This document shows, piece by piece, positions 6,357 through 20,506 of a DNA stretch of 21,568 nt. The DNA lies in contig PLCF01000048.1 of assembly GCA_003135555.1 (NCBI GenBank), positions 1 to 21,568 on the forward strand, written 5' to 3'. A model generated the notes under the pieces. That model saw only the letters and a program-made list of their open reading frames with translations. It was not told the DNA's origin and searched no databases. The first letter of the stretch is position 1. Each line of letters opens with the position of its first letter. Origin of the DNA: Vulcanimicrobiota bacterium. Lineage in GTDB: Bacteria; Vulcanimicrobiota; Vulcanimicrobiia; Vulcanimicrobiales; Vulcanimicrobiaceae. Both the position numbers and the translations under genes were made by a program.

Positions 6357-7550
6357 CTACACCCGTTCGAAGATCGTGGCGATCCCTTGGCCCATGCCGA
6401 TGCACATCGTCGCAAGGCCGTAGCGACCGCCGCGGCGCTTGAGCTCGTGCAGCAAGGTCGTCGCGATGCGCGCCCCGCTACAGCCTAGCGGGTGACCCAG
6501 CGCAATCGCACCGCCGTTGACGTTGACGATGCTCGGATCGATCTCGAGCGCCTTGACGCAGGCGACGCTCTGCGCTGCGAAGGCTTCGTTGAGCTCGACC
6601 AGATCGAGGTCGTCGACGGTCAACTTGGCGCGCTCGAGCGCCTTGCGCGTCGCGCCGATCGGGCCGATCCCCATCACGCTCGGATCGACGCCGAACGTCG
6701 CCGACGTCACCACGCGCGCCAGCGGCTGCCAGCCGTTGTGGTGCGCGGCTGCGGCGCTGCAGATGAGCAGCGCCGCGGCGCCGTCGTTGAGCGGCGAAGC
6801 GTTGCCGGCGGTCACCGTTCCGTCGGCCTTGAAGGCGGCCTTGAGCTTGGCTAGCGACTCGCGCGTCGTGTCGGGCCGCGGCGGTTCGTCCACGCACAGG
6901 TCGTAGCGCTGCTTCCCGTGCTCGACGTGCACCGGGACGAGCTCGGCGTCGAAGCGACCGGCCTCCATCGCGGCCTTGCACTTCATCTGGCTCTCGTACG
7001 CGAACTCGTCCTGGTCGTCGCGCGTGACGTGGAACTCCGCAGCGACCTTCTCGGCAGTCTCCCCCAGCGAGATGGGCGGATACATCGCGGCCAGCCGAGG
7101 GTTAAGCATCCGGTTGCCCAGCGTGGTGTCGTGGATGTCGGGCGCGCGGTCGTAGGCCTTCTCCGCCTTGAGGATGACGAACGGCGCGCGCGTCATCGAC
7201 TCGGCGCCGCCGGCGATTGCGATGTCGATCACCCCCGCGGCGATCGCGTGGTAGGCCGAGTTGAGCGCCTGCAGCCCGCTGCCGCACAGCCGGTTGAGCG
7301 TCGTTCCGGGGACGCTGGTGGGCAGCCCGGCGAGTAGCGACGCCATGCGCGCGACGTTTCGGCAGTCCTCACCCGCTTGGTTGGCGGCGCCCCAAAAGAC
7401 GTCGTCGAGCGTGGCCGGGTCGACGCCGGTGCGCTCGACGAGCGCCCGAATCGCGTACGACCCCAGGTCGTCGGGGCGAACGGGCGCTAGAGCGCCGCCA
7501 TAACGCCCCATGGGCGTGCGCAGCGCGTCGACGATTACAGCTTCGGCCAT
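6357..7550 (-). CDS. paaJ: Acetyl-CoA C-acyltransferase (thiolase), PaaJ/PcaF-like
   Basis: ANQAGED.RNVARM, NRLCGSG (active Cys), NEAFA, GGAIALGHPLG and TMCIGMGQG. Start 7550 or 7559. The paaJ versus pcaF assignment rests on context. Confidence 0.85.
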   Translation of the reverse strand: MAEAVIVDALRTPMGRYGGALAPVRPDDLGSYAIRALVERTGVDPATLDDVFWGAANQAGEDCRNVARMASLLAGLPTSVPGTTLNRLCGSGLQALNSAYHAIAAGVIDIAIAGGAESMTRAPFVILKAEKAYDRAPDIHDTTLGNRMLNPRLAAMYPPISLGETAEKVAAEFHVTRDDQDEFAYESQMKCKAAMEAGRFDAELVPVHVEHGKQRYDLCVDEPPRPDTTRESLAKLKAAFKADGTVTAGNASPLNDGAAALLICSAAAAHHNGWQPLARVVTSATFGVDPSVMGIGPIGATRKALERAKLTVDDLDLVELNEAFAAQSVACVKALEIDPSIVNVNGGAIALGHPLGCSGARIATTLLHELKRRGGRYGLATMCIGMGQGIATIFERV

Positions 7551-7627
7551 ATCATCCATAACACGCTCGCGCGCTCGGCCGTCGCGCCTAGGAGCGGCCG
7601 CCCAGCAGGACGGCGAAGGGGCTGGCC

Positions 7628-8860
7628 GTGGAGACGATGCGGGTGCGCTGCTGCATCGCCGGCGGCGGGCCTGCCGGGATGATGCTGGGCTACCTGTTGG
7701 CGCGCGCCGGCGTCGAGATCGTCGTCCTGGAGAAGCACGCCGACTTCTTGCGCGACTTTCGGGGCGATACGGTCCACCCGTCGACGTTGCAGGTGATGGC
7801 CGAGCTGGGGCTGCTCGAGGAGTTCCTCAAGCGGCCGCACCAGGAGCTGCCGCGCATCGGCGGGCTCATCGGCGACGACGCCATCACCATGGCCGACTTC
7901 AGCGGGCTCAACGTCGCCTGCAAGTTCATCGTGCTCATGCCGCAGTGGGACTTCTTGAACTTCCTCGAGGAGCACGCGCGGCGCTATCCGGCCTTCCACC
8001 TGCGCATGCGCGCCGAGGTGACGGAGCTCGTCGAGGAAGCCGGCGTGATCGTCGGCGTTCGCGCGGCGACCCCGGACGGTCCGCTGGAGATCCGAGCCGG
8101 CCTCGTGATCGGCGCCGACGGCCGGCGTTCGACGGTGCGCGAGCAGGCCGGTCTGCGCGTCGAGGACCTCGGCGCCCCGATCGACGTGCTCTGGATGAGG
8201 CTGCCGCAACATCCCGGCGATCCCAAGTCGACCCTGGGGCGGATCAACGCGGGCAAAGTCTTCGTGACGCTGGACCGCGGTGAGTACTGGCAGTGCGCCT
8301 ACGTGATCCCCAAGGGCGGATTCGAGGCGCTGCGGCAGCGCGGTCTGGACGCGCTGCGCGCGGACATCGTGGCGATCGCCCCGTTCATGGCCGACCGCAT
8401 CGACGCGCTACGCGACTGGGACGACGTCAAGCTCCTCACCGTCACGGTGGACCGCTTGCGGCGCTGGTATCGTCCAGGACTGTTGTGCATCGGCGACGCC
8501 GCGCACGCCATGTCCCCGATCGGCGGGGTCGGCATCAACCTGGCCATCCAGGACGCGGTCGCCGCCGCGAACATCTTGGCCGCACCGCTGCGTGACGGCA
8601 CCGTGGCGGAGCGCGACCTAGCCCAACTCCAGCGCCGCCGCGAGTTTCCGATCCGGGTGACGCAAGCGTTCCAAGTCTTCGCACAGACCCGCATCTTCGG
8701 CGCCGTCCTGCGCAGCACCGCGCCGCTGCGCGCACCCTGGCCGGTCCGGCTGTTGCGGCGCTTCCCGTACCTGCAACGCTTCCCGGCGCTCTTCATCGGC
8801 GTCGGCGTGCGTCCCGAGCACGTGCACACGCCCGAGCTCACCGCCCCGCGAAATGCCTAA
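7628..8860 (+). CDS. FAD-dependent oxidoreductase/monooxygenase (UbiH/PHBH-like fold)
   Basis: IAGGGPAG, EKHADFLRDFRGDTVHPST, GADGRRS and IGDAAHAMSPIGGVGINLAIQDA. Confidence 0.9.
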   Translation: METMRVRCCIAGGGPAGMMLGYLLARAGVEIVVLEKHADFLRDFRGDTVHPSTLQVMAELGLLEEFLKRPHQELPRIGGLIGDDAITMADFSGLNVACKFIVLMPQWDFLNFLEEHARRYPAFHLRMRAEVTELVEEAGVIVGVRAATPDGPLEIRAGLVIGADGRRSTVREQAGLRVEDLGAPIDVLWMRLPQHPGDPKSTLGRINAGKVFVTLDRGEYWQCAYVIPKGGFEALRQRGLDALRADIVAIAPFMADRIDALRDWDDVKLLTVTVDRLRRWYRPGLLCIGDAAHAMSPIGGVGINLAIQDAVAAANILAAPLRDGTVAERDLAQLQRRREFPIRVTQAFQVFAQTRIFGAVLRSTAPLRAPWPVRLLRRFPYLQRFPALFIGVGVRPEHVHTPELTAPRNA

Positions 8861-9951: not shown

Positions 9952-11055
9952 TCAGCCGACGGTAAAGCGCTCCAACTTCTCGAGGCCCAAGCGCTCGGCC
10001 ATCGCGTCGAGTCCGTCCCAGACCTTCGGATCGATCGGCACGCCCTCGCGGCGATAGCGCTCCGTGTTCGCACGCTCGGGTTCACCGGCGGTGACGACGC
10101 TCTCCACGCCCGGCACCGGCGCGCTTTGCTCGAACGTTTGCAGCTCGCGGGCGACGTCGCGCTCGAAGTCCTTGACGTCGCGCAGCGCGTCGATGCGGAA
10201 CGCGCCGAAGAAGTGGGCCACCGTTCCGCCGTGCATGCCGCGTTCGTCGAGCCCCAGAGCGGTGCCGAACATCCCGCCCGAGAGCACGCCGCACAGGATC
10301 TCGACGAGCGCGCCGAGCCCGTAGCCTTTGTGCCCGCCGCCCTCGGTGCCGTAGCCGCCCAGCGGCAGCAGCGCGCCGACCGTCATCGCCGTCGTCGGAT
10401 CGAGCGTCTCGCGCCCGTCGGCGCCGACGGCCCAACCCGGCTTGAGCAGCTTGCCTTTGCGCTCGCTCACCTCGAGCCGCCCGAACGTCACGCCGCTCGT
10501 CGACATGTCGAGCACGTACGGCGCGTGCCCGTGGGCCGGGATCGCGACCGAGATCGGGTTGGTCCCTTGGGTTTTCTGGGCCCCGAACGTCGGCACCGTC
10601 AGGTGCGTCGAGTTCGTCATCGACAGGCCGATGCAGTCGTGCTCGAGCGCCAGCATCGCATAGTAGGCTGCGATGCCGTAGTGATTGGAGTTGCGGACGG
10701 TCGCAAACGCGAGGCCGTTTTGGCGCGCCTTGTCGATCGCCTTGCGCATCGCAAAGACGCCGGCCGGGTGACCGAGCCCGTTGCCGGCGTCGAGCGCGAA
10801 CTGGGTCGGGCGGTCGCACAACGTCGCGTAGGCCGGCCGCGCGTTGACGACGCCGCCCTCGATGCGGCGCACGTAGAACACGTCGAGCCGCGCGATCCCG
10901 TGCGATTCCACGCCGCGCAGATCGGCCGCCACGAGCACGTCCGCGACGTCACCCGCGTCGGACTCGCTCACGCCGACGGCGCTAAGCGCGCGCACGATGA
11001 AGTCGTGCTCGTCCGCCTCGTGCGCGCGAATAGGTGAGGGTGCTTCGCCGATCAT
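9952..11055 (-). CDS. Ldh_2-family (malate/L-lactate/ureidoglycolate dehydrogenase-like) oxidoreductase
   Basis: ADLRGVESHGIARL, VRNSNHYG, GTNPIS, LDMSTS and GGHKGYGL. Start uncertain (11055 or 11088). Confidence 0.9.
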   Translation of the reverse strand: MIGEAPSPIRAHEADEHDFIVRALSAVGVSESDAGDVADVLVAADLRGVESHGIARLDVFYVRRIEGGVVNARPAYATLCDRPTQFALDAGNGLGHPAGVFAMRKAIDKARQNGLAFATVRNSNHYGIAAYYAMLALEHDCIGLSMTNSTHLTVPTFGAQKTQGTNPISVAIPAHGHAPYVLDMSTSGVTFGRLEVSERKGKLLKPGWAVGADGRETLDPTTAMTVGALLPLGGYGTEGGGHKGYGLGALVEILCGVLSGGMFGTALGLDERGMHGGTVAHFFGAFRIDALRDVKDFERDVARELQTFEQSAPVPGVESVVTAGEPERANTERYRREGVPIDPKVWDGLDAMAERLGLEKLERFTVG

Positions 11056-11400: not shown

Positions 11401-12615
11401 GTGCTGACGCGCGACCGAGCCGTACGCGCGCTCGACCGCTGCGTTCGCATCGACCGCCGGCGGTTCTTCGAGGAGATCTGGTCGCAGCGGCCGCTCCTGG
11501 TCGACCGCCGTGACGATGCGGCGTTCGGCGACCTGTTCTCGCTCGAGAGCGTCGACCGCATCCTCTCCGGCACGTTTCCGCGCCGTCCCGCCGTTCGGCT
11601 CGTCAAGGACGGCGCGGAGCTGCCCCCGAGCTCGTACGTGCGCACGGTCAGCCTGGGCTCGGAGTGGCTGCACGACGTCATCGACGCCGGGCGCGTGTAT
11701 GACGCGTTCCAGAACGGCGCGACGATCGTGCTGCAAGGGCTGCAGCGCTACTGGGAGCCGGTCGTGCGCTTCGCGCGCGACTTGGAGCTCGAGCTCACGC
11801 ATCCCGTTCAGGTCAACGCGTACGTCTCTCCGCCGGGCGCGCGCGGCCTGGGCGTTCACTACGACACGCACGACGTCTTCGTGCTGCAGACCGGCGGCTC
11901 GAAGCGGTGGAACGTCCACGAGCGCGCGGTCGACGTTCCGCTGCCGCACCAGCGCTCGCGCACGGTGCCGGTTCCGCAGGAGTCGGTGATCGAGACGGAG
12001 CTGCTCGCCGGCCAGTCGCTCTACATCCCGCGCGGCTTCTTGCACGAGGCGATCGCGACCGCGCAGGTCTCCGTCCATCTGACCGTCGGGATGCTGTGCT
12101 ACACCTGGAAAGACGTCTTCGACGAGGCGTTCAAGGACCTGGAGGACGTCGTCGAGTTTCGCGCAGCGCTGCCGGCCGGATTTGCGAACGACGCCGAGGC
12201 GCACGCGCCGGCGGTCGCGGCGAAGCTGCGGGCGCTCGCGGCGTGGCTCGAGACGCGCGATCCGAATGCGCTCGGCGAGCGCGTCGCAAACCGCTTCCTC
12301 TCTTCGCGCGCGCCGGTCCGGTTCGGACAGTTCGAGCAGCTGCCGCTCATCGAAGCGCTCGGCGAGCGCAGCCAGGTTCGCCTGCGGTCCGGCAACGTGT
12401 TCGACGTGCGCGGCGGTGACGAGGGCGCGATCGAGGTCGTGCTCGGCGATCGCAAGCTGGTGATGCCGGCGCCGCTCGAGGACGCGCTGCGCTTCGTCGC
12501 GCGCGGCGAGCCGTTCGCTCCCGCCGACCTGGAGATGTTCGAGGACGGCGAGAGCGCGACGGCGTTCGTGCGGCGGCTCGCGCGCGAAGGGGCGCTCGAG
12601 ATCCTCAGCCTGTAG
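11401..12615 (+). CDS. JmjC/cupin Fe(II)/2-oxoglutarate oxygenase, RoxA/NO66/MINA53-like
   Basis: FFEEIWSQRP; NAYVSPPGARGLGVHYDTHDVFVLQTGGSKRW (H153, D155, K168); LYIPRGFLH (H215); C-terminal winged-helix-like region. Confidence 0.9.
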   Translation: MLTRDRAVRALDRCVRIDRRRFFEEIWSQRPLLVDRRDDAAFGDLFSLESVDRILSGTFPRRPAVRLVKDGAELPPSSYVRTVSLGSEWLHDVIDAGRVYDAFQNGATIVLQGLQRYWEPVVRFARDLELELTHPVQVNAYVSPPGARGLGVHYDTHDVFVLQTGGSKRWNVHERAVDVPLPHQRSRTVPVPQESVIETELLAGQSLYIPRGFLHEAIATAQVSVHLTVGMLCYTWKDVFDEAFKDLEDVVEFRAALPAGFANDAEAHAPAVAAKLRALAAWLETRDPNALGERVANRFLSSRAPVRFGQFEQLPLIEALGERSQVRLRSGNVFDVRGGDEGAIEVVLGDRKLVMPAPLEDALRFVARGEPFAPADLEMFEDGESATAFVRRLAREGALEILSL

Positions 12616-13450
12616 GGCGCCCGAGCGCTGCGAGGCGCTCCGCGACGTTCGCCAGCAGACGGTCGGCGGCGTACTCGTCGTAGCGCGCGCGGTCGTAACA
12701 CATGGCGAGCCAGCACCGGCCGTCGACGACCGCACCGGGGGCGAGGATTGCGGGTTCGCCCGGCGCGACGAGCGGAAACGCGAGCAGCGTGCCGCCGGCG
12801 CCGACGTTGGTAACGGTTGCGACGGCGCCGCCGACGTCGGTCGCGGTGAGCGCGCCGGCCTGGGCGCGTTCGGCGAAGTCGCGGATGCGCACGCCGATGT
12901 CGTGCAGCGAGGCGTCGCGTGCGTCGGGGACGACCGGCACGACCAGACCACCCGGCACCTCGACCGCGACCCCGATGCGGTCGGCCTCGAGCGCCTGCGC
13001 GAAGGCCTTGACGAAATACGCCGTCCACGCCACGCCCGCGCGCTCGATCCCGGACAGATCGACCTGCCGCGCGCACGAACCTTGCGCGATGGTCGCACGC
13101 GCTTCGGTCATCCGCTCGGCAATACGCTTGCGCATCGGACTCAGGCCGCCGGGCCGCGCCTGCGGCGCCGCGCCGATCGGCCGCGAAACCGCGGTGTGCT
13201 CGCCCGCGACGGATCCGCCTTCGTTCGCGAAGCGCGCCAGGATCTGACCGACCTCGGCGCGTTCGCCCGCGGCGACGACGATCTCGGCGAGCACGCCGTC
13301 GTAGGGCGACTCGATGTCGGTGTTCACCTTGTCGGTCTCGACGGCGAACAGCGGCTCGCCGCGTTTCACCGTATCGCCGGGGCGCTTGTACCACTCCGAC
13401 ACGAGGCCGTCGACGAGCGTGTCGGCCAGCCGCGGAAACTCAACGTCCAT
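12605..13450 (-). CDS. Reduced dihydrolipoamide acyltransferase (E2): lipoyl domain plus degenerate catalytic domain
   Basis: Lipoyl motif VETDKVNTDIESP; LSPMRKRIAERM; IGVAVEVPGGLVVPVV; ATVTNVG; YDRARYD in place of DHRxxDG. Confidence 0.8.
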   Translation of the reverse strand: MDVEFPRLADTLVDGLVSEWYKRPGDTVKRGEPLFAVETDKVNTDIESPYDGVLAEIVVAAGERAEVGQILARFANEGGSVAGEHTAVSRPIGAAPQARPGGLSPMRKRIAERMTEARATIAQGSCARQVDLSGIERAGVAWTAYFVKAFAQALEADRIGVAVEVPGGLVVPVVPDARDASLHDIGVRIRDFAERAQAGALTATDVGGAVATVTNVGAGGTLLAFPLVAPGEPAILAPGAVVDGRCWLAMCYDRARYDEYAADRLLANVAERLAALGRPTG

Positions 13451-14879
13451 CTTCCACCGCAGTCTTGAAGGCGGCGAGGAAGCGGCCGACGTCGGCGCCG
13501 TCGACGGCGCGATGGTCGACGGCGCAGGCGGCGTACGCGCGCCCGTCGTGCACGGCACCGATCCGCAGCGCCGCGGTTTGGCCGGGCCGGACGAACGGGA
13601 TCGCGAGGTCGCTCCCGGCCGGACCGTAGTCGACCAGCGTGATCGTGCCGCGCCCGCTCGCCGGCGACGTCGCGCCCAAGTCGAGATCGACTCGCACCTC
13701 GTCGTGCGCGACGAGGCCCGTCCAAGCGAAGGTCGCGTTGCACTGCGGAACCGCGCGCACCGCCGCTGCCAGCGCGTCGACGGCGAGGCGGGTGTGCTCG
13801 ACCGGCAGCGCGACTTCGACGATGCTCGAGGCCTGCGGTATCCCCGGATCGTAGGCCGCCGGGGCGGCGCCTCCGGCGTGCGAACGCGGTCGCGCGACCA
13901 GCCGCGCGAGCGCGTCGCCGATCGTCGCGCGATTGGGCAACAGCGCGTCTTCGAGCACCTCGTCGACCGGGATCCCGGGGATGTCGGGCATGGCGACCCG
14001 TACCGGCGGCACGTCGAGCACGCCGGCTTCGGCCGCCAGCGCGCACAACTCCGCGCCCAGCCCCATCGTGAGCGTGTCTTCGTGCACGACGCACAGCCGG
14101 CGCGTTTTCGCCAGCGACGTCAGGATCGTCTCGCGGTCGAGCGGCGCGAGCGTGCGCAGGTCGATCACCTCGACGTCGATCCCCTCCTGCGCGAGCACAT
14201 CAGCGGCGGCGAGCGACTCGTGCAGCATCATGCCGTAGGCGAGCACCGTCGCGTCGGCCCCGGCGCGTGCGACCGCCGCGCGCCCGATCGGCACGACGTA
14301 CTCGCCTTCGGGGACCGGGCCGCGAATCGCGCGGTACGTACGCTTGTGCTCGAGCACCAGGACGGGATCCGGATCGCGAATCGCCGCGACGAGTAGGCCC
14401 TTCGCGTCGGCCGGCGTCGAGGGCGCTACGACCTTCAATCCCGGCGCATGCGCGTAGAAGGCTTCGACGGATTGCGAATGATACGGTCCGCCGCGAAAGC
14501 CGCCGCCGTAGGCGGTGCGCAGCACCATCGGGCACGACCAATCGCCGCCGGTACGCCAGCGGATCTTCGCCGCCTCGCCGACGAGATGGTCCATCGCGGC
14601 ATGAATGAAGTCGGCGAACTGGATCTCGGCGACGGGCCGCATCCCGCGCATCGCCAGACCGACGGTCACCCCCGCGATCACGGTCTCGGCCATCGGCATG
14701 TCGATGACGCGCTGCGGCCCGAAACGCTCGTACAGCCCTTCGGTGGCGCGAAACACGCCGCCCAGTTTTCCGACGTCCTCACCCAGGACCAGAACGCGCT
14801 CGTCGCGCGCCATCTCTTGCGCCAGCGCCTCGCGCACCGCCTCAACCACGCTGAGCTCACGGCTGACGGTGTTAGGCAT
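13440..14879 (-). CDS. 2-oxoacid dehydrogenase E1-beta fused to a shortened E2 catalytic-like domain
   Basis: GEDVGKLGGVFRATEGL, AEIQFADF, YHSQS and EVIDLRTLAPLD, then about 135 aa ending AVDHRAVDGADVGRFL. ATG 14879 overlaps the E1-alpha stop. Confidence 0.85.
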   Translation of the reverse strand: MPNTVSRELSVVEAVREALAQEMARDERVLVLGEDVGKLGGVFRATEGLYERFGPQRVIDMPMAETVIAGVTVGLAMRGMRPVAEIQFADFIHAAMDHLVGEAAKIRWRTGGDWSCPMVLRTAYGGGFRGGPYHSQSVEAFYAHAPGLKVVAPSTPADAKGLLVAAIRDPDPVLVLEHKRTYRAIRGPVPEGEYVVPIGRAAVARAGADATVLAYGMMLHESLAAADVLAQEGIDVEVIDLRTLAPLDRETILTSLAKTRRLCVVHEDTLTMGLGAELCALAAEAGVLDVPPVRVAMPDIPGIPVDEVLEDALLPNRATIGDALARLVARPRSHAGGAAPAAYDPGIPQASSIVEVALPVEHTRLAVDALAAAVRAVPQCNATFAWTGLVAHDEVRVDLDLGATSPASGRGTITLVDYGPAGSDLAIPFVRPGQTAALRIGAVHDGRAYAACAVDHRAVDGADVGRFLAAFKTAVEDGR

Positions 14880-15826: not shown

Positions 15827-16996
15827 CTATTTCGCGATCGCGAACTTTCCGTTTTCGACCTGCGTGAGCACCAGCGAGAACACCGACAGACCGTTGTGGT
15901 CGCCGCCGGACATGCGGAATTGGCCGGTAACGCCGAGGTAGTCGGTGTGCTCGAGCGCCTGGCGCAGCTTCTCGCCGTCGGTGCTCTTGGCGCGCTCGAG
16001 AGCCTGCTTGAGCACGTAGACGCCGTCGTAGCCGAAGCCGCCGAAGATGCTGACCGGCGCGTCCTTGGGATAATCCTTGACGAACGTCGCGATGTAGCGC
16101 GTGAGCAGCTTCTTTTGCGGGTCGCCGTTGGGCAGCGCGTCGGCGACGTTGATCTTCGTGCTCGCGATGTACGCACCGTTGAGCGCCGCGCCGGCCTGCT
16201 GCGGGAACACACCGGTCGCCGCACCGTCGGAATAGTAGATCGGGGTCGTTACGCCGAGTTCGCGGTAGGCCTTGATGATCACGGCGGCCGACGGCAGCGT
16301 GGTCCAGCACACGATCGCCTGCGGGTTGGCAGCCTTGATGTGGGTCAGCTGGGTGGTCGCGTCGCTGGCGCGGGCGTTGATCGCCTCCGCGTCGACGACC
16401 TCGATGCCGAAGTTCGCACCGGCGTCCTTGAAGTGCGAGAGTCCCGTCTTGCCGTAGTCGTCGTCGCGATAGATGACGGCGACCTTGGTCGTCTTCTTCT
16501 TGCGCATGTGCTCCTGCATCGCTTGCGCAACGTGGAAATCGGTGATCGGCATCTTGAAGATCCACTGGCGGTCGCCGACCGGCTGGATCACCTGCGAGCT
16601 CGAGGCGAATGAGACCATCGGAACCTTCGCCTGCGTCGCGAGCGGGACCATCGCGAGCGAGGTCTGGGTGAGCGATGAGCCCAGGATCGCGATGACGTGC
16701 GCGTCGAGAAACTTGCGCGTGTTGTTGACGGCGGTGGTCGCGCTGGATTCATCGTCGAGGATAGTGATCTGCAAGGGGTGGCCGTTCACTCCGCCCGCCT
16801 TGTTGATCTCGTCGACGGCCAGCTGCATGCTGTCGGCCTCGGGGCGGCCCAGCGTCGCCCCCGGACCGCTCTCGGAAACCGTGGCGCCGATGAGGTACGG
16901 TTCGTTCGCCGCACCGGCCGGCGGCGGCGGCGCACCCGAAACGATGAGAAACGATGCAAGCGCGAGCGCGCCGAGACGAGCGACCGTCGAACGCAT
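15827..16996 (-). CDS. Liv-type ABC transporter substrate-binding protein (resembles the aromatic-acid-binding subgroup)
   Basis: Signal peptide; IGATVSESGPGATLGRPE, EINKAGGVNG, DDYG and DHNGL. AAGGAGG RBS at 17005-17011. Confidence 0.9.
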   Translation of the reverse strand: MRSTVARLGALALASFLIVSGAPPPPAGAANEPYLIGATVSESGPGATLGRPEADSMQLAVDEINKAGGVNGHPLQITILDDESSATTAVNNTRKFLDAHVIAILGSSLTQTSLAMVPLATQAKVPMVSFASSSQVIQPVGDRQWIFKMPITDFHVAQAMQEHMRKKKTTKVAVIYRDDDYGKTGLSHFKDAGANFGIEVVDAEAINARASDATTQLTHIKAANPQAIVCWTTLPSAAVIIKAYRELGVTTPIYYSDGAATGVFPQQAGAALNGAYIASTKINVADALPNGDPQKKLLTRYIATFVKDYPKDAPVSIFGGFGYDGVYVLKQALERAKSTDGEKLRQALEHTDYLGVTGQFRMSGGDHNGLSVFSLVLTQVENGKFAIAK

Positions 16997-17051
16997 GGAC
17001 CTAGCCTCCTTCACGATAGATTGATCCCGGGGGTTCTGCGAGTGCGGCCGA

Positions 17052-17106
17052 TCACCCGCGCAGCGGGTGACCGCGTCACCCGCGCAGCGGGTGACCGCGT
17101 CACCCG
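17052..17106. repeat. Tandem 24-nt palindromic repeat (2 full copies plus 1 partial)
   Basis: TCACCCGCGCAGCGGGTGACCGCG at 17052-17075 and 17076-17099, then TCACCCG. Confidence 0.9.
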
Positions 17107-17837
17107 TGCGGCGCTTCCCCGTGGGACTCCAAGTACACGTGCCGGGCCGACTGCGCCAACTCCTCGGACGTCGCCGTCCCCACGATGCGCCCGCGTTGCA
17201 TGAGGTACGCGCGCCCGCAGATCCGCGCCGCCAGCCGCAGGTTCTGCTCGACCAGCAGGATCGTGACGCCGCGTTCGGCGAGCCGCGCCAGCGCTCCGAA
17301 GTTCTCCGCACGGACCTTGGGCGCGAGCCCGAGGCTGGGCTCGTCGAGGAGCAACAGCTCGGGCTTCGCCATGAGCGCGCGCCCGATCGCCACCATTTGC
17401 TGCTCGCCGCCCGAGAGCGAGCCGGCGAGCGCGTCGCGCAATCGCACCAGCGCCGGAAACAAGCCGAACACATCATCGAGGTCGGCGGCGAGATCGGCGC
17501 GCTGCGCGCGCCGCGCGTATGCACCCATGAGCAGGTTTTCGCGCACGCTGAGCGGCGCGAAGATCCCGCGCCGCTCGGGGACCAGCGCGACCCGCCGCGA
17601 TGCGAGCCGCTCGGGTGCCATCCCGGTCACGTCTTCGCCGTTGACGCGGATGCGGCCGGACCGGGGCGGGACCAGCCCGGTGATCGAGCCGACCAGGGTC
17701 GTCTTCCCCGCGCCGTTAGGTCCGACGATGGCGACCGTTTCACCACGGCGCACGCTCAGGCTGACGTCCCACAACACCTGCACGCGCCCGCGGACGGTCG
17801 AGATTTTCTCGACCTCGAGGACCGGCGTTTCAGTCAT
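17100..17837 (-). CDS. livF: Liv-type ABC transporter ATP-binding protein
   Basis: GPNGAGKTT, LSGGEQQM, LLLDEPSLGLAP and LVEQN. Start 17837 or 17843. Confidence 0.9.
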   Translation of the reverse strand: MTETPVLEVEKISTVRGRVQVLWDVSLSVRRGETVAIVGPNGAGKTTLVGSITGLVPPRSGRIRVNGEDVTGMAPERLASRRVALVPERRGIFAPLSVRENLLMGAYARRAQRADLAADLDDVFGLFPALVRLRDALAGSLSGGEQQMVAIGRALMAKPELLLLDEPSLGLAPKVRAENFGALARLAERGVTILLVEQNLRLAARICGRAYLMQRGRIVGTATSEELAQSARHVYLESHGEAPHG

Positions 17838-18696
17838 TGTCATCCTGAGCCCCGTCGAAGGATGAACCAGCCGGAGCGTCCAGCTCGTCACCGATGTAGG
17901 CGTCGATCACCAGCGGATCGGTCGCGACGGCTTGCGGAGCACCTTCGGCGATCTTGCGCCCGTGGTCGAGCACCACCACGCGATCGGCGACGGCAAGCAG
18001 CTCCCCGACGGCGTGCTCCACCAACAGCACCGCGACGCCGTCCTCGCGCGCGGCCCGAATCGACGCGATCACGGCGCCGATCTCATCGGGGTTGAGCCCC
18101 GAGAGCGGCTCGTCGAGCAGCAGGACCGTCGGCTCGACCGCGAGTGCGCGCGCGAGTTCCAGCAGCCGTTCCTCGCCGAAGGCCAGCGACTCGGTGAGCC
18201 GATCGGCGGTCGCAGCGATCCCCGCGCGGGTCAGGATCGCATCGGCCGTGTCACGTAAGGCCGTCTCCGCGCGCCGGCGCTGCGCCGCTCCGATCCCGCA
18301 CGGCACGAGCTCGCGGTGCGGCGCGGGCGGATACGTCGCGCCGAACTCGCGCGCTGCCAGGGCGACCTCGATGCTCTCGCGCACCGTGAGCCCCCAGAAC
18401 ATGACGGGTGTTTGGAAGGTTCGCGTGACGCCCAGTGCCGCGACATTCTCCACGGAGCGCCCCGTCAGCGCCGTACCGGCGAGCGATACGCTGCCGGCGG
18501 TGGGCCGTTGCACGCCGCTGATCACGTTGAACAGCGTCGTCTTGCCGGCCCCGTTGGGGCCCATCACGCCGAGCACTTCGCCGGTGCGCGCGACGAAGCT
18601 GACGTCGTCCACCGCGACGACCCCGCCGAAGCGCACCGTCACGCCGGCCACCTCGAGGGTCGCCGTCACGCTGGGGTTTGCGGCCGGCGCGGTCAT
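17830..18696 (-). CDS. livG: Liv-type ABC transporter ATP-binding protein
   Basis: FGGVVAV, GPNGAGKTT, RTFQ, LELARAL, LLDEP and VIDAYIG. ATGA overlap with the livH stop. Confidence 0.9.
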   Translation of the reverse strand: MTAPAANPSVTATLEVAGVTVRFGGVVAVDDVSFVARTGEVLGVMGPNGAGKTTLFNVISGVQRPTAGSVSLAGTALTGRSVENVAALGVTRTFQTPVMFWGLTVRESIEVALAAREFGATYPPAPHRELVPCGIGAAQRRRAETALRDTADAILTRAGIAATADRLTESLAFGEERLLELARALAVEPTVLLLDEPLSGLNPDEIGAVIASIRAAREDGVAVLLVEHAVGELLAVADRVVVLDHGRKIAEGAPQAVATDPLVIDAYIGDELDAPAGSSFDGAQDDND

Positions 18697-19565
18697 GCGC
18701 GCCGCACCGCGCGCCCGAGCAGCCCTTGCGGGCGCAGCACGAGCACCAGCACGAGGATAAAAAAACCGACGCCGTCCTCCCAACCGGTGGAGAGCAGACC
18801 GCCCGCAACCTTCACGATGATCCCCAAGACGAATCCGCCGACGAGCGCACCGGGAAGGCTCTCGAGTCCGCCCAGCACGGCGGCGACGAAACCGGCCAGT
18901 CCGAAGGTGAGGCCCATGTCGAACGTCGCGCTGGTGATCGGCGCGATGACGACGCCGCCGAGTCCGCCGATCGCCGCCGCCACGACGAAACTCCAGAACG
19001 CAAACGTGCGCAGCGGGATGCCGAACGTCGACGCGATCGGCGGGTTCGCGACCGCGGCGCGTACCGCCGTGCCGGTATAGGTGTGCCGGAAGAACAGGTA
19101 GAGCGCACCGAACACCAGCACGTCGGTCAAGAGCACCCACAGCGCTTGCGGCGGCAGCACGCCGCCGAAGATCGTAACGGCGGTACCGCCGCTGAACGCG
19201 TTCAAGCTGAGCGGGTTGGTGCCCCACACGAACAGTCCCAGCCCGCGCAGCGCGACGTCGAGCCCCAGCGTGATGAAGATCAGCGTGACCCCCGTCGCCG
19301 CGCGGGCCGGTCGGATCGCCAGCAGATAGCACAGCGCGCCGGTCACCGCGGCGGCGACGACCGCGATCCCGGCGGCGGCGAGGGTCGGCATCCCGGCGCC
19401 GGCCAGCGAAGCCGCGGTCATCGCACCGATCATCGCGAACTCGCCTTGGGCGAAGTTGATCAACCCCGTGACCTGATAGATGAGCACGAAGCCCGCCGCG
19501 ATGAGCGCGTAGATCGCGCCGACGACGACGCCGGCGAGGATGTACTGCCACACCGATGCCATCAT
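18693..19565 (-). CDS. livH: Liv-type ABC transporter permease
   Basis: GAIYALIAAGFVLIY, INFAQGE, AAVLGG and LRPQGLLG. Confidence 0.9.
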   Translation of the reverse strand: MMASVWQYILAGVVVGAIYALIAAGFVLIYQVTGLINFAQGEFAMIGAMTAASLAGAGMPTLAAAGIAVVAAAVTGALCYLLAIRPARAATGVTLIFITLGLDVALRGLGLFVWGTNPLSLNAFSGGTAVTIFGGVLPPQALWVLLTDVLVFGALYLFFRHTYTGTAVRAAVANPPIASTFGIPLRTFAFWSFVVAAAIGGLGGVVIAPITSATFDMGLTFGLAGFVAAVLGGLESLPGALVGGFVLGIIVKVAGGLLSTGWEDGVGFFILVLVLVLRPQGLLGRAVRRA

Positions 19566-20506
19566 GCGCGGCGCGCCTCGGCGAACCGGCCGGTGATCCC
19601 GCGCGGCAAGTAGATCAGCATCGCGATGAGGATGATCCCGAAGAAGAACGACTGAAAGTCGCCGCGTGCACCGGGCAGCACGAGCGGAACGGTCGCTTGG
19701 AGCATTTGCTTGAGCGCGACGACCGCGGCGGCGCCGACGACCGCGCCCGAGAGGCTGCGAATCCCGCCGATCACCGACATGAGCACGAAGTTCACCGACA
19801 GCAAGAAATCGAACGAGCTGGGATCGATATACGATTGTTGCGACGCGTAGACCGCGCCGGCGACTCCCGCGTACACCGCGCTGAGCACGAACGTCTGGCG
19901 CTTCAAACGCTCCGCGTCGACGCCCAGCGCCTGCGCGCCCAGTTCACCGGCGGAGATCGCGACCAACGAGCGCCCGAAGCTCGACCGCACGAGGTTCCCC
20001 GCGAACCATAGCCCCAGCACGAGCAACGCCCAGGCGAGCACGGCATATGCGCGTTGATCGAAGGTGTACGCCCCCAGCGTGAAACCCGGGATGTCCTTGA
20101 AGCCCGAGGAGCCGCCGATGAACTCCCATTGGTTGAACACGACGTTGATCACGATACCGAGCGCCAGCGTCGCGAGCGCAAGCAGGTTCTCACGCAACCG
20201 CAGTGCGACGAAGCTCAGAACGTAGGCGACGAATGCCGCCAGAAGCGCTCCGGCCAGCATCCCCGCCCACGGCGTGACGTGCAGCTTCACGGCCAACGCC
20301 GCCGACGCGTACGCGCCGATCCCGAAGAACGCCGCTTGCCCCAGCGAGACCTGACCGGCGTATCCCATGAACAGATTGAGCCCGATCGTGACGAGCGCGT
20401 ACAGCCCGATCTGCGTCAACAGCCCCGTGTAGTATGACGGCAGAACCCACACGGCCGCCGCAACGGCGACGAGCAGCACCAATCCGATCCGGCCGTGCAC
20501 CAACAT
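19562..20506 (-). CDS. livM: Liv-type ABC transporter permease
   Basis: GLNLFMGYAGQVSLGQAAFFGIGAY, LALATLA and PRGI. Start may be GTG 20500 behind an AAAGGA RBS. Confidence 0.9.
   Translation of the reverse strand: MLVHGRIGLVLLVAVAAAVWVLPSYYTGLLTQIGLYALVTIGLNLFMGYAGQVSLGQAAFFGIGAYASAALAVKLHVTPWAGMLAGALLAAFVAYVLSFVALRLRENLLALATLALGIVINVVFNQWEFIGGSSGFKDIPGFTLGAYTFDQRAYAVLAWALLVLGLWFAGNLVRSSFGRSLVAISAGELGAQALGVDAERLKRQTFVLSAVYAGVAGAVYASQQSYIDPSSFDFLLSVNFVLMSVIGGIRSLSGAVVGAAAVVALKQMLQATVPLVLPGARGDFQSFFFGIILIAMLIYLPRGITGRFAEARRA

Follow-up and report, generated by a model that had tools for sequence, protein, structure and literature searches.

How does a 2-oxoacid dehydrogenase transfer acyl groups when neither of its two acyltransferase (E2)-type domains keeps all of the conserved active-site residues? 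This question is raised by a locus for a pyruvate-dehydrogenase-like enzyme in contig PLCF01000048.1 of a Vulcanimicrobiota bacterium from soil (assembly GCA_003135555.1). In textbook accounts, 2-oxoacid dehydrogenase complexes assemble on an E2 core that is homo-oligomeric, and the exceptions in actinobacteria, a trimeric E2p and OdhA, have reportedly been regarded as paradigm-breaking. In the 21,568 nucleotides (nt) that were analyzed (the window; G+C content ~70%), three overlapping genes on the minus strand encode the alpha subunit of an E1 dehydrogenase, an E1-beta subunit fused to a cut-down E2 catalytic domain (P0001), and a short lipoyl-bearing E2 (P0002, the lipoyl-E2). Coordinates of all features are collected in Table 1. 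We think it fairly probable that these genes form a three-gene 2-oxoacid dehydrogenase module in which the E2 active site is divided between two polypeptides.

Complementary residues in two E2-type domains

P0001 consists of a complete E1-beta, a linker of ~20 residues, and a 135-amino-acid (aa) cut-down E2 catalytic domain. Pfam models match at residues 9-183 (PF02779), 199-320 (PF02780), and 410-477 (PF00198, profile positions 147-226), and the fused domain scores 38 bits against the 23-bit cut-off for PF00198. The covalent tethering of E1, stated in an earlier prediction made from this DNA (the original prediction), can be read directly from the sequence. Helices H1 and H2 are missing from the fused domain, as are the N-terminal arm, the GLxxPV strand together with helix H4, and the hairpin that precedes the strand carrying the DHR motif. 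An AlphaFold model of residues 335-479 has a predicted local distance difference test score (pLDDT) of 92.8 and a predicted template modeling score (pTM) of 0.88, and the best Protein Data Bank matches found with Foldseek are E2 catalytic cores, with template modeling (TM) scores of 0.75-0.82 relative to the query. In this model, the fused domain is a compact, minimized E2 domain, more than a C-terminal fragment.

The half of the E2 site that the fused domain retains is the one containing the catalytic His: P378, N381, D455-H456-R457, and D460-G461, so that the DHRxxDG motif is present with both its His and its Asp. At the position of the Ser-Asn of canonical E2s (GTFTI[ST]N), it instead has Val416-Asp417.

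In P0002, a 27-aa linker joins a lipoyl domain to a cut-down catalytic domain. A Pfam search at E <= 1 detected no peripheral subunit-binding domain (PSBD; PF02817) in this protein. The lipoyl-lysine, K41, is invariant in 113 aligned lipoyl-E2 sequences. The PF00198 match scores 85.7 bits, with its best stretch at residues 159-243 (profile positions 98-182), and the best Foldseek matches of the AlphaFold model (mean pLDDT 75.6, with low values in the linker and helix H1) are again E2 cores. Here, it is the Ser half of the site that is retained: helix H1 with R107, G168-L169-x-x-P172-V173, helix H4, and T214-N215, which supply the Ser/Thr and Asn of GTFTI[ST]N. Neither helix H2 nor the PxxNA hairpin is present, the hairpin that precedes the DHR strand is also missing, and D253-R254-A255...D258-E259 replaces the DHRxxDG of canonical E2s. 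In the alignments, only a few residues follow the last helix in either E2-type domain, and both seem to have no C-terminal knob.

The otherwise variable linker of the lipoyl-E2 contains one conserved segment, GEHTAVSRPI (residues 83-92, window positions ~13175-13204), which is near-invariant in the 113 sequences and is modeled as disordered. It may be a docking peptide or an N-terminal arm that reaches over the neighboring subunit.

These assignments come from HMMER alignments against solved E2s and from MAFFT alignments against 26 canonical E2 domains. By sequence, the nearest solved relatives are the trimeric actinobacterial E2p structures 6zzi and 9y6t. With HMMER, GTITLVDYG of the fused domain and AVATVTNVG of the lipoyl-E2 line up with GTFTITNIG, and DHRAVDG lines up with DHRLIDG. 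V416 and T214 align to the Ser/Thr of GTFTI[ST]N, and H456 and R254 to the His of DHRxxDG. In the corresponding MAFFT column (263), His is found in 26/26 canonical domains and in all fused domains, while all lipoyl-E2s have Arg. Since a divergent orthologue (L103) reads YDRRAYDD and aligns to DHRxxDG without gaps, it is the Arg itself, and no shifted residue, that takes the place of the His. The original prediction had described a fused domain with DHRAVDG (H456) and Val at the Ser/Thr position, and a lipoyl protein with T214 and Arg in place of His. Both codons and alignments bear out this description, and alignment to PF00198 relatives places the residues where it had put them.

The original prediction also assumed that E2 sites form between subunits, with the His coming from one and the Ser from its neighbor. 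A cryo-EM report on E. coli E2p (PMC8421416) agrees, as it describes H603' and D607' as belonging to the neighbor of the S551-bearing domain. According to that report, the channel entrance is formed by the S551 domain, docking of the lipoyl domain involves the helix H1 tip (R407) and loop 536-544, and D-H-R is conserved across all E2 sequences (PMC8421416).

We compared retention of canonical positions in the two domains, using those whose conservation among the 26 canonical E2 domains is 65% or higher and including both the short form of the pair, represented by the window, and a long form described below. The positions retained only in the lipoyl-E2, short and long, are L103, R107, A111, and M114 of helix H1; A162; G168-L169-x-x-P172-V173; A196 and L201; and N215 and I235. 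All are deleted or altered in the fused domain. Retained only in the fused domain are P378 and N381 (PxxN), G411, T412, H456, and G461. Helix H1 with its basic tip is seen by alignment in the lipoyl-E2 (R107, A111, M114), where it is modeled at low pLDDT, and is deleted in short and long fused domains. In bioRxiv 2020.07.24.212647, the 3'-phosphate of coenzyme A (CoA) is bound by an Arg (Av R450, Cg R480). At the matching column, the position of which is approximate and good to a few residues, long lipoyl-E2s have Arg (10/10) and long fused domains have Leu (4/4). This complementary retention suggests that the lipoyl-E2 is equipped as the Ser-bearing, substrate-docking subunit, and that the fused domain contains little beyond the His loop and a stable fold.

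Conservation, distribution, and a long form of the pair

Of 8000 candidates scored in a search with the fused domain, 188 proteins matched at E <= 0.001. Among the 120 of these matches that were listed, all contain PF02780 and PF00198, and 115 also contain PF02779; the other five are fragments of 268-288 aa. When P0001 is counted with these 120 listed relatives, DHRA[VI]DG is present in 119/121 sequences, and the Ser position is occupied by V (90), I (28), A (1), or T (2). No variation is seen at D455, H456, R457, or G461 across 115 aligned fusions. The search with the catalytic part of P0002 returned 473 proteins at E <= 0.001, of which 120 were listed. In P0002 and these 120 listed relatives, the His position is Arg in 120/121 and Gly in one; none has His. 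T214, N215, V216, and G217 are invariant in the 113 aligned lipoyl-E2s. The invariance of D455/H456/R457/G461 in 115 sequences and of T214-G217 in 113 argues for purifying selection on both halves. Whether the fusion exists beyond this assembly had been left open by the original prediction; we found it in more than 100 relatives. Conservation across >100 assemblies rules out an assembly artefact, a frameshift, or a decaying gene, and the residue pattern is kept far more consistently than chance would allow.

The source names of the fused-domain matches point to Eremiobacterota. One match, P0098, is labeled Vulcanimicrobium alpinum, which we take to be a cultured species. Database names are generic, such as "2-oxoisovalerate dehydrogenase E1 component beta subunit" and "2-oxo acid dehydrogenase subunit E2".

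We examined a phylum sample of 201 genomes, which includes two unpublished genomes (G128 and G178) that are counted only among those without the pair. Full-length P0002 orthologues are found in 10/201: all nine genomes of the window's genus, including its own, and the sole genome of a second genus. The fused domain is present in exactly the same 10 genomes, in one copy each. In 10/10, the two genes are adjacent and have the reciprocal motifs.

Scanning one genome per species revealed 33 further fused-domain loci (L037-L069), 30 of them labeled Vulcanimicrobiota, Eremiobacteraeota, or WPS-2 and one each labeled Limnocylindrales, Dormiibacterota, and Chloroflexi. DHRA[VI]DG is present in 33/33, and a lipoyl-E2 comes directly after the fusion in 31/33. 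The His-less YDR motif was read in 30 of these 31 lipoyl-E2s; the 31st ran off the search pattern. The two loci that lack this neighbor (L063 and L064, genomes G201 and G202) have a 60%-identical full-length lipoyl-E2 elsewhere in each genome, and the one unlinked copy that was read, in L103, has GGGFTVTNVG and CYDRRAYDDY. That the two genes are inherited together even when unlinked argues for functional dependence.

A search of 50%-identity representatives with the fused tail led, through its weaker matches, to the long form of the pair, which is also the older one. This search found no full-length short-form fusions, which seem to be hidden behind other cluster representatives, and is thus uninformative on short-form distribution. 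P0260, a long-form fusion of 594 aa, combines E1-beta with a near-full PF00198 domain (profile positions 21-227) that starts after helix H1 and contains ATATLADYG and DHRALDG. Searching with the P0260 domain yielded 91 proteins at E <= 1e-20, all with the three-domain architecture; the four with an organism name are all from Chloroflexota/Chloroflexi. DHRxxDG is present in 91/91. The pattern used to read the Ser position matched 84 of the 91 (seven were missed), and the 82 clean matches reveal drift: A in 52, T in 16, V in 6, I in 5, and S in 3, the next residue always being Asp. A search of the 201 phylum genomes with the P0260 domain found no long form, only canonical E2s at ~30% identity.

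The partner gene is linked to the long form as well. Fusion motifs were read in 28 of 33 metagenome loci, and in 28 a lipoyl gene (IETDKVT) starts directly after the fusion. All 16 partners with a complete C terminus have x-T-[VLI]-T-N-V-G and [FY]-D-R-[RG] and lack the His; 15 are long form (D-R-R in 15/15) and one is short form. The long-form partner has a lipoyl domain, a PSBD (PF02817, E = 1.2e-5 and 3.5e-4 in two partners), and a PF00198 domain that covers profile positions 6-229, and it too lacks the PxxNA hairpin. Thus, the reciprocal His/Thr pattern, the conservation of which the original prediction had proposed as a check, holds in all related loci examined, short and long.

A quick maximum-likelihood tree was computed from 60 catalytic domains. 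It included 26 canonical E2s, 10 short and 10 long lipoyl-E2s, and, as fused domains, 10 short and 4 long ones (4 of 11 picked long ones passed the trimming pattern). The components have parallel phylogenies: short and long fused domains form one clade (Shimodaira-Hasegawa-like approximate likelihood ratio test [SH-aLRT] 99) and short and long lipoyl-E2s form another (98). Therefore, the pair predates the split of the two forms. The deletion preceding the DHR strand is common to the fused domain and the lipoyl-E2, and an alignment of 56 gap-free residues gives 41% identity between them; they may be sister paralogues, although the tree does not show this.

Two further observations concern these sequences. 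The search of 50%-identity representatives also returned five lipoyl-E2s of 386-417 aa (P0266, P0269, P0282, P0300, and P0301) that have no PF02817 match and a short hairpin before the DHR strand. Both active-site motifs are complete in these proteins (GGTFSISNVG with the Ser, DHRALDG with the His), and in the tree they make up a separate, well-supported clade within the canonical E2s. In addition, three short-form loci (L063, L064, and L043) have labels outside Eremiobacterota (Dormiibacterota, Chloroflexi, and Limnocylindrales), and in two of them the lipoyl-E2 is unlinked. As the long form also carries Chloroflexota labels, this raises the question of transfer between phyla or of mislabeled bins.

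A proposed composite site and the alternatives

The best reading of these data, and one that they partly support, is that the module encodes a heteromeric E2 whose active site is composite and to which E1 is covalently attached; all comparative tests that we ran agree with what such a heteromer predicts. In this mechanism, E1 (alpha plus beta) would decarboxylate a 2-oxoacid and acylate the lipoyl group on Lys41 of the small lipoyl-E2. The acyl-dihydrolipoyl arm would then dock at the lipoyl-E2's own catalytic domain, where helix H1, the channel-entrance loop, and Thr214/Asn215 have been kept. The general base, His456 with Asp460, would be supplied by the domain fused to E1-beta, packed as the neighboring subunit in an E2 oligomer resembling that of chloramphenicol acetyltransferase (CAT). 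His456/Asp460 would deprotonate CoA, Thr214 would stabilize the intermediate, and CoA would be acylated at the composite site. The fusion would keep E1 on the complex, standing in for the missing PSBD. We infer from the sequence comparisons that the two proteins associate physically, that they share a catalytic site, and that CoA is the acceptor; the stoichiometry is inferred as well, with a 2:1 or 1:2 trimer and an open heterodimer as possibilities.

Several points weigh against this proposal. A closed three-fold CAT-like ring is impossible with the productive interface alone, as at least one further interface, either homotypic or doubly degenerate, is needed, and a trimer is not easily reconciled with the apparent 1:1 dosage of the genes. 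We considered an Arg254-Asp417 salt bridge that would plug a second, dead interface, but the side chain beside the Ser would probably point away from the site. Because both short-form domains lack helix H2, where the CoA-phosphate Arg maps, CoA binding is not assured in the short form. Helix H1 of the lipoyl-E2, the presumed docking site, lies in a part of the monomer model (residues 81-120) where the means of 10-residue blocks fall to pLDDT 30-42. The putative location of the PxxN hairpin on the "His face" was assigned from the retention pattern alone. Finally, S or T occupies the Ser position in 19/82 long-form fused domains, which counts against the strict statement of the original prediction that neither protein works as a homomer. 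Loss of the Ser merely lowers activity in related enzymes. Together, these last two points mean that a homomer of the fused domain could retain some activity.

Such a homomer is the basis of one alternative, which we consider unlikely. The fused domain would be the only acyltransferase, and the lipoyl-E2 would provide a lipoyl arm in trans, its own catalytic domain being a dead scaffold like that of the mammalian E3-binding protein (E3BP). There are precedents for both parts of this arrangement. In actinobacterial OdhA/Kgd, a working E2o is joined to E1o and relies on the lipoyl domains of a different protein (PMC10415282), and E3BP is an E2 paralogue that shares a mixed core with E2p (PMC11700594). 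Also in favor of this alternative, DHRxxDG is retained throughout the short and long fused domains, and S or T is still present at the Ser position in 19/82 long ones. However, the fused domain has no lipoyl-docking helix H1, its GLxxPV is lost or degraded, its conserved Asn has become Asp, and its Ser position drifts freely. Moreover, a dead scaffold would not need to maintain T214, N215, GLxxPV, and the H1 Arg at canonical levels across differing layouts in two phyla.

We consider it improbable that both E2-like domains are purely structural, serving to tether E1 to its lipoyl carrier while the acyl group is transferred by a canonical E2 of the organism or goes to another acceptor. Complete PF00198 domains are indeed encoded at four other loci of the genome, the two short-form domains are strongly trimmed and lack helix H2, and there is no PSBD to bind E3. 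Yet H456/D460 and T214/N215 are invariant in >100 sequences each and are also kept in the long form, and a tether would not need them. A further possibility, that the lipoyl-E2 is active alone with another base, either Arg254 or a His/Arg three residues on, seems very improbable to us. Although a His lies three positions past R254 in 60/121 short-form sequences (P0002 and 120 listed relatives), the remaining ones have Arg, Lys, Gln, or Leu there and long-form sequences have Ala, Val, Arg, or Leu, so that the position is not conserved. Arg is a poor general base, and the PxxN hairpin and the Gly of DG are gone from this protein as well.

If the site is indeed divided, its history may have been one of reciprocal degeneration, a scenario that we advance only tentatively. 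Two paralogous E2 domains would have lost opposite halves of the site at their shared interface, the one with the His face becoming joined to E1-beta and the other retaining the face for Ser and lipoyl docking, leaving the hetero-oligomer alone catalytic and giving rise to a minimal coreless dehydrogenase with one composite site per pair. The long form, which keeps the PSBD, may have arisen in or near Chloroflexota, and the Vulcanimicrobium lineage of Eremiobacterota would have a version stripped further, in which the PSBD and helix H2 are gone and the fused domain no longer has its GLxxPV strand.

Neighboring genes and relation to known systems

The combination of an E1_dh alpha subunit with a beta subunit that contains Transket_pyr and Transketolase_C (PF00676, PF02779, and PF02780) identifies the E1 as being of the heterotetrameric (alpha2beta2) type known from PDH, BCKDH, and acetoin dehydrogenase complexes. 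The best NCBIfam model for E1-alpha is the pyruvate dehydrogenase (PDH) E1-alpha TIGR03181, at 252 bits against a 411-bit cut-off, and the scores of both E1 subunits remain below all NCBIfam equivalog cut-offs. The end of the E1-alpha gene and the start of the fusion gene overlap by 8 nt. The 11-nt overlap between the P0001 and P0002 genes suggests translational coupling; overlaps of 4 or 11 nt are present in most of 31 related loci, with start codons estimated.

Genes for a leucine-isoleucine-valine (LIV)-type ABC transporter lie upstream of the module, and an Ldh_2-family dehydrogenase gene lies downstream (Table 1). The best NCBIfam model for the Ldh_2 protein is L-sulfolactate dehydrogenase, at 215 bits and far under the 500-bit cut-off. 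In another genome with the module (G011), a permease of the transporter's family is also found upstream, and an Ldh_2 homologue (L109:6838-7998) directly follows the lipoyl-E2 on the same strand; the corresponding genes of the window are separated by a JmjC_2 gene that runs in the opposite direction. The Ldh_2 dehydrogenase is probably in the same pathway as the module, and may supply its 2-oxoacid substrate. The transporter and the dehydrogenase as neighbors, together with the position of Ldh_2 directly after the lipoyl-E2 in G011, hint at a 2-oxoacid derived from amino acids or from 2-hydroxyacids. Further downstream are genes for a thiolase and an FAD-dependent monooxygenase; an FAD_binding_3 gene is close to the module in G011 too.

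Table 1. Features of the module and its surroundings (window coordinates)
Feature	Position	Strand	Basis
LIV-type ABC transporter, five genes (binding protein, two ATPases, two permeases), upstream of E1-alpha	15830..20506	-	PF13458, PF00005 (x2), PF12399, PF02653 (x2)
E1-alpha, thiamine diphosphate (ThDP)-dependent 2-oxoacid dehydrogenase alpha subunit, 332 aa	14872..15870	-	PF00676 E1_dh, E = 5.4e-65
E1-beta fused to cut-down E2 catalytic domain (P0001), 479 aa + stop	13440..14879	-	Translation; PF02779, PF02780, PF00198 on one polypeptide
Fused minimal E2 domain with linker (residues 335-479)	13443..13877	-	AlphaFold, Foldseek, alignments, codons
Val416 codon GTC, Ser/Thr (oxyanion) position	13632..13634	-	Direct reading
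His456 codon CAT, catalytic His of DHRAVDG	13512..13514	-	Direct reading
Overlap of fusion-gene end with lipoyl-E2-gene start, 11 nt, ATGGACGTTGA	13440..13450	-	Sequence
Short lipoyl-E2 (P0002), 281 aa + stop	12605..13450	-	Translation; PF00364 + PF00198, no PF02817
Lipoyl domain (residues 3-73)	13232..13444	-	PF00364, E = 7.7e-18
Lipoyl-lysine K41 codon (VETDKVN)	13328-13330	-	Direct reading
Lipoyl-E2 catalytic domain (residues 103-281)	12608..13144	-	Alignments, codons
Thr214 codon ACC, Ser/Thr position	12809..12811	-	Direct reading
Arg254 codon CGC, catalytic-His position	12689..12691	-	Direct reading
JmjC_2 gene between lipoyl-E2 and Ldh_2	11401-12612	+	Pfam
Ldh_2-family 2-hydroxyacid/2-oxoacid dehydrogenase	9955..11055	-	PF02615, E = 5e-108
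FAD-dependent monooxygenase, downstream of module	7628-8857	+	PF01494
Thiolase, downstream of module	6360-7559	-	PF00108/PF02803

The original prediction did not recognize this architecture as one already described. In agreement, our search of the open-access full-text literature found no description of an E1-beta-E2 fusion or of a split E2 site. If our reading is true, the module represents a further and different break with the homo-oligomeric core, in which the E2 site is shared by an E1-beta fusion and a His-less lipoyl-E2 and the family spans two phyla. It would be an obligate heteromeric acyltransferase with E1 held by a peptide bond in place of a PSBD, and its short form would perhaps be the smallest complex of the 2-oxoacid dehydrogenase kind. 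It would also be a natural example of an obligate heteromer that arose by reciprocal degeneration within a single active site, and a clean natural case of a homo-oligomer becoming an obligate hetero-oligomer through complementary loss. These possibilities are relevant to researchers studying 2-oxoacid dehydrogenase complexes and the evolution of hetero-oligomers.

Among known systems, OdhA/Kgd, as described in PMC10415282, resembles the module in that an E2 catalytic domain is fused to E1, the classical large core is abandoned, and the fused E2 has no lipoyl domain of its own. However, the E2 of OdhA is N-terminal to a homodimeric E1o, is catalytically complete (with a His/Gln dyad), and is homotrimeric (PMC10415282). 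In the module, the E2 remnant follows the beta subunit of a heterotetrameric-type E1 at its C terminus, has neither helix H1 nor the Ser, and always comes with a dedicated His-less lipoyl-E2; it has neither the complete N-terminal E2o nor the homodimeric E1o with OxoGdeHyase_C that define the OdhA/Kgd type. A genuine E2o-E1o fusion is encoded elsewhere in the window's own genome (G000:C79; L156:1353-5552, minus strand). Its 1400 aa contain lipoyl (35-107), PSBD (187-216), and E2 (252-485) domains and a complete E1o (E1_dh, Transket_pyr, OxoGdeHyase_C), and this all-in-one protein differs from actinobacterial OdhA/Kgd in keeping its own lipoyl domain and PSBD. Such fusions are probably common in the phylum, since many genomes have lipoyl matches within open frames of 1300-1480 aa.

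The mammalian E2p/E3BP core (PMC11700594) likewise combines two paralogous E2-type domains. In mammalian PDH, however, E2p is complete as an enzyme and E3BP is added for the binding of E3, whereas here neither partner is complete and the His-bearer is part of E1-beta. Like the long-form lipoyl-E2, E3BP contains lipoyl and PSBD domains, and its catalytic domain reportedly lacks the His.

The trimeric actinobacterial E2p (AceF/DlaT; 6zzi, 9y6t), according to bioRxiv 2020.07.24.212647, stops at the trimer and forms no 24- or 60-mer, and both E2-type domains of the module similarly seem to lack the knob. AceF differs in that it is a homotrimer of full-length E2 chains, which have lipoyl domains and a PSBD as well as both the His and the Ser. 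NF008854/PRK11892, an E1-beta that begins with a lipoyl domain, is another example of E2 material relocated to E1-beta; P0001 matches this NCBIfam model at positions 140-460, and the lipoyl domain of P0002 matches it at 4-94. There, the transferred part is an N-terminal lipoyl domain, whereas here it is a C-terminal remnant of the catalytic domain. A reciprocal split of the active site between two different chains is present in none of these systems, OdhA/Kgd, E2p/E3BP, trimeric E2p, or NF008854. The CAT trimer has the same fold, and its active sites lie at subunit interfaces, with the His coming from one subunit and most of the pocket from its neighbor, a division that matches the complementary retention seen in the module. 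CAT differs from the proposed heteromer in being a homotrimer with three equal sites.

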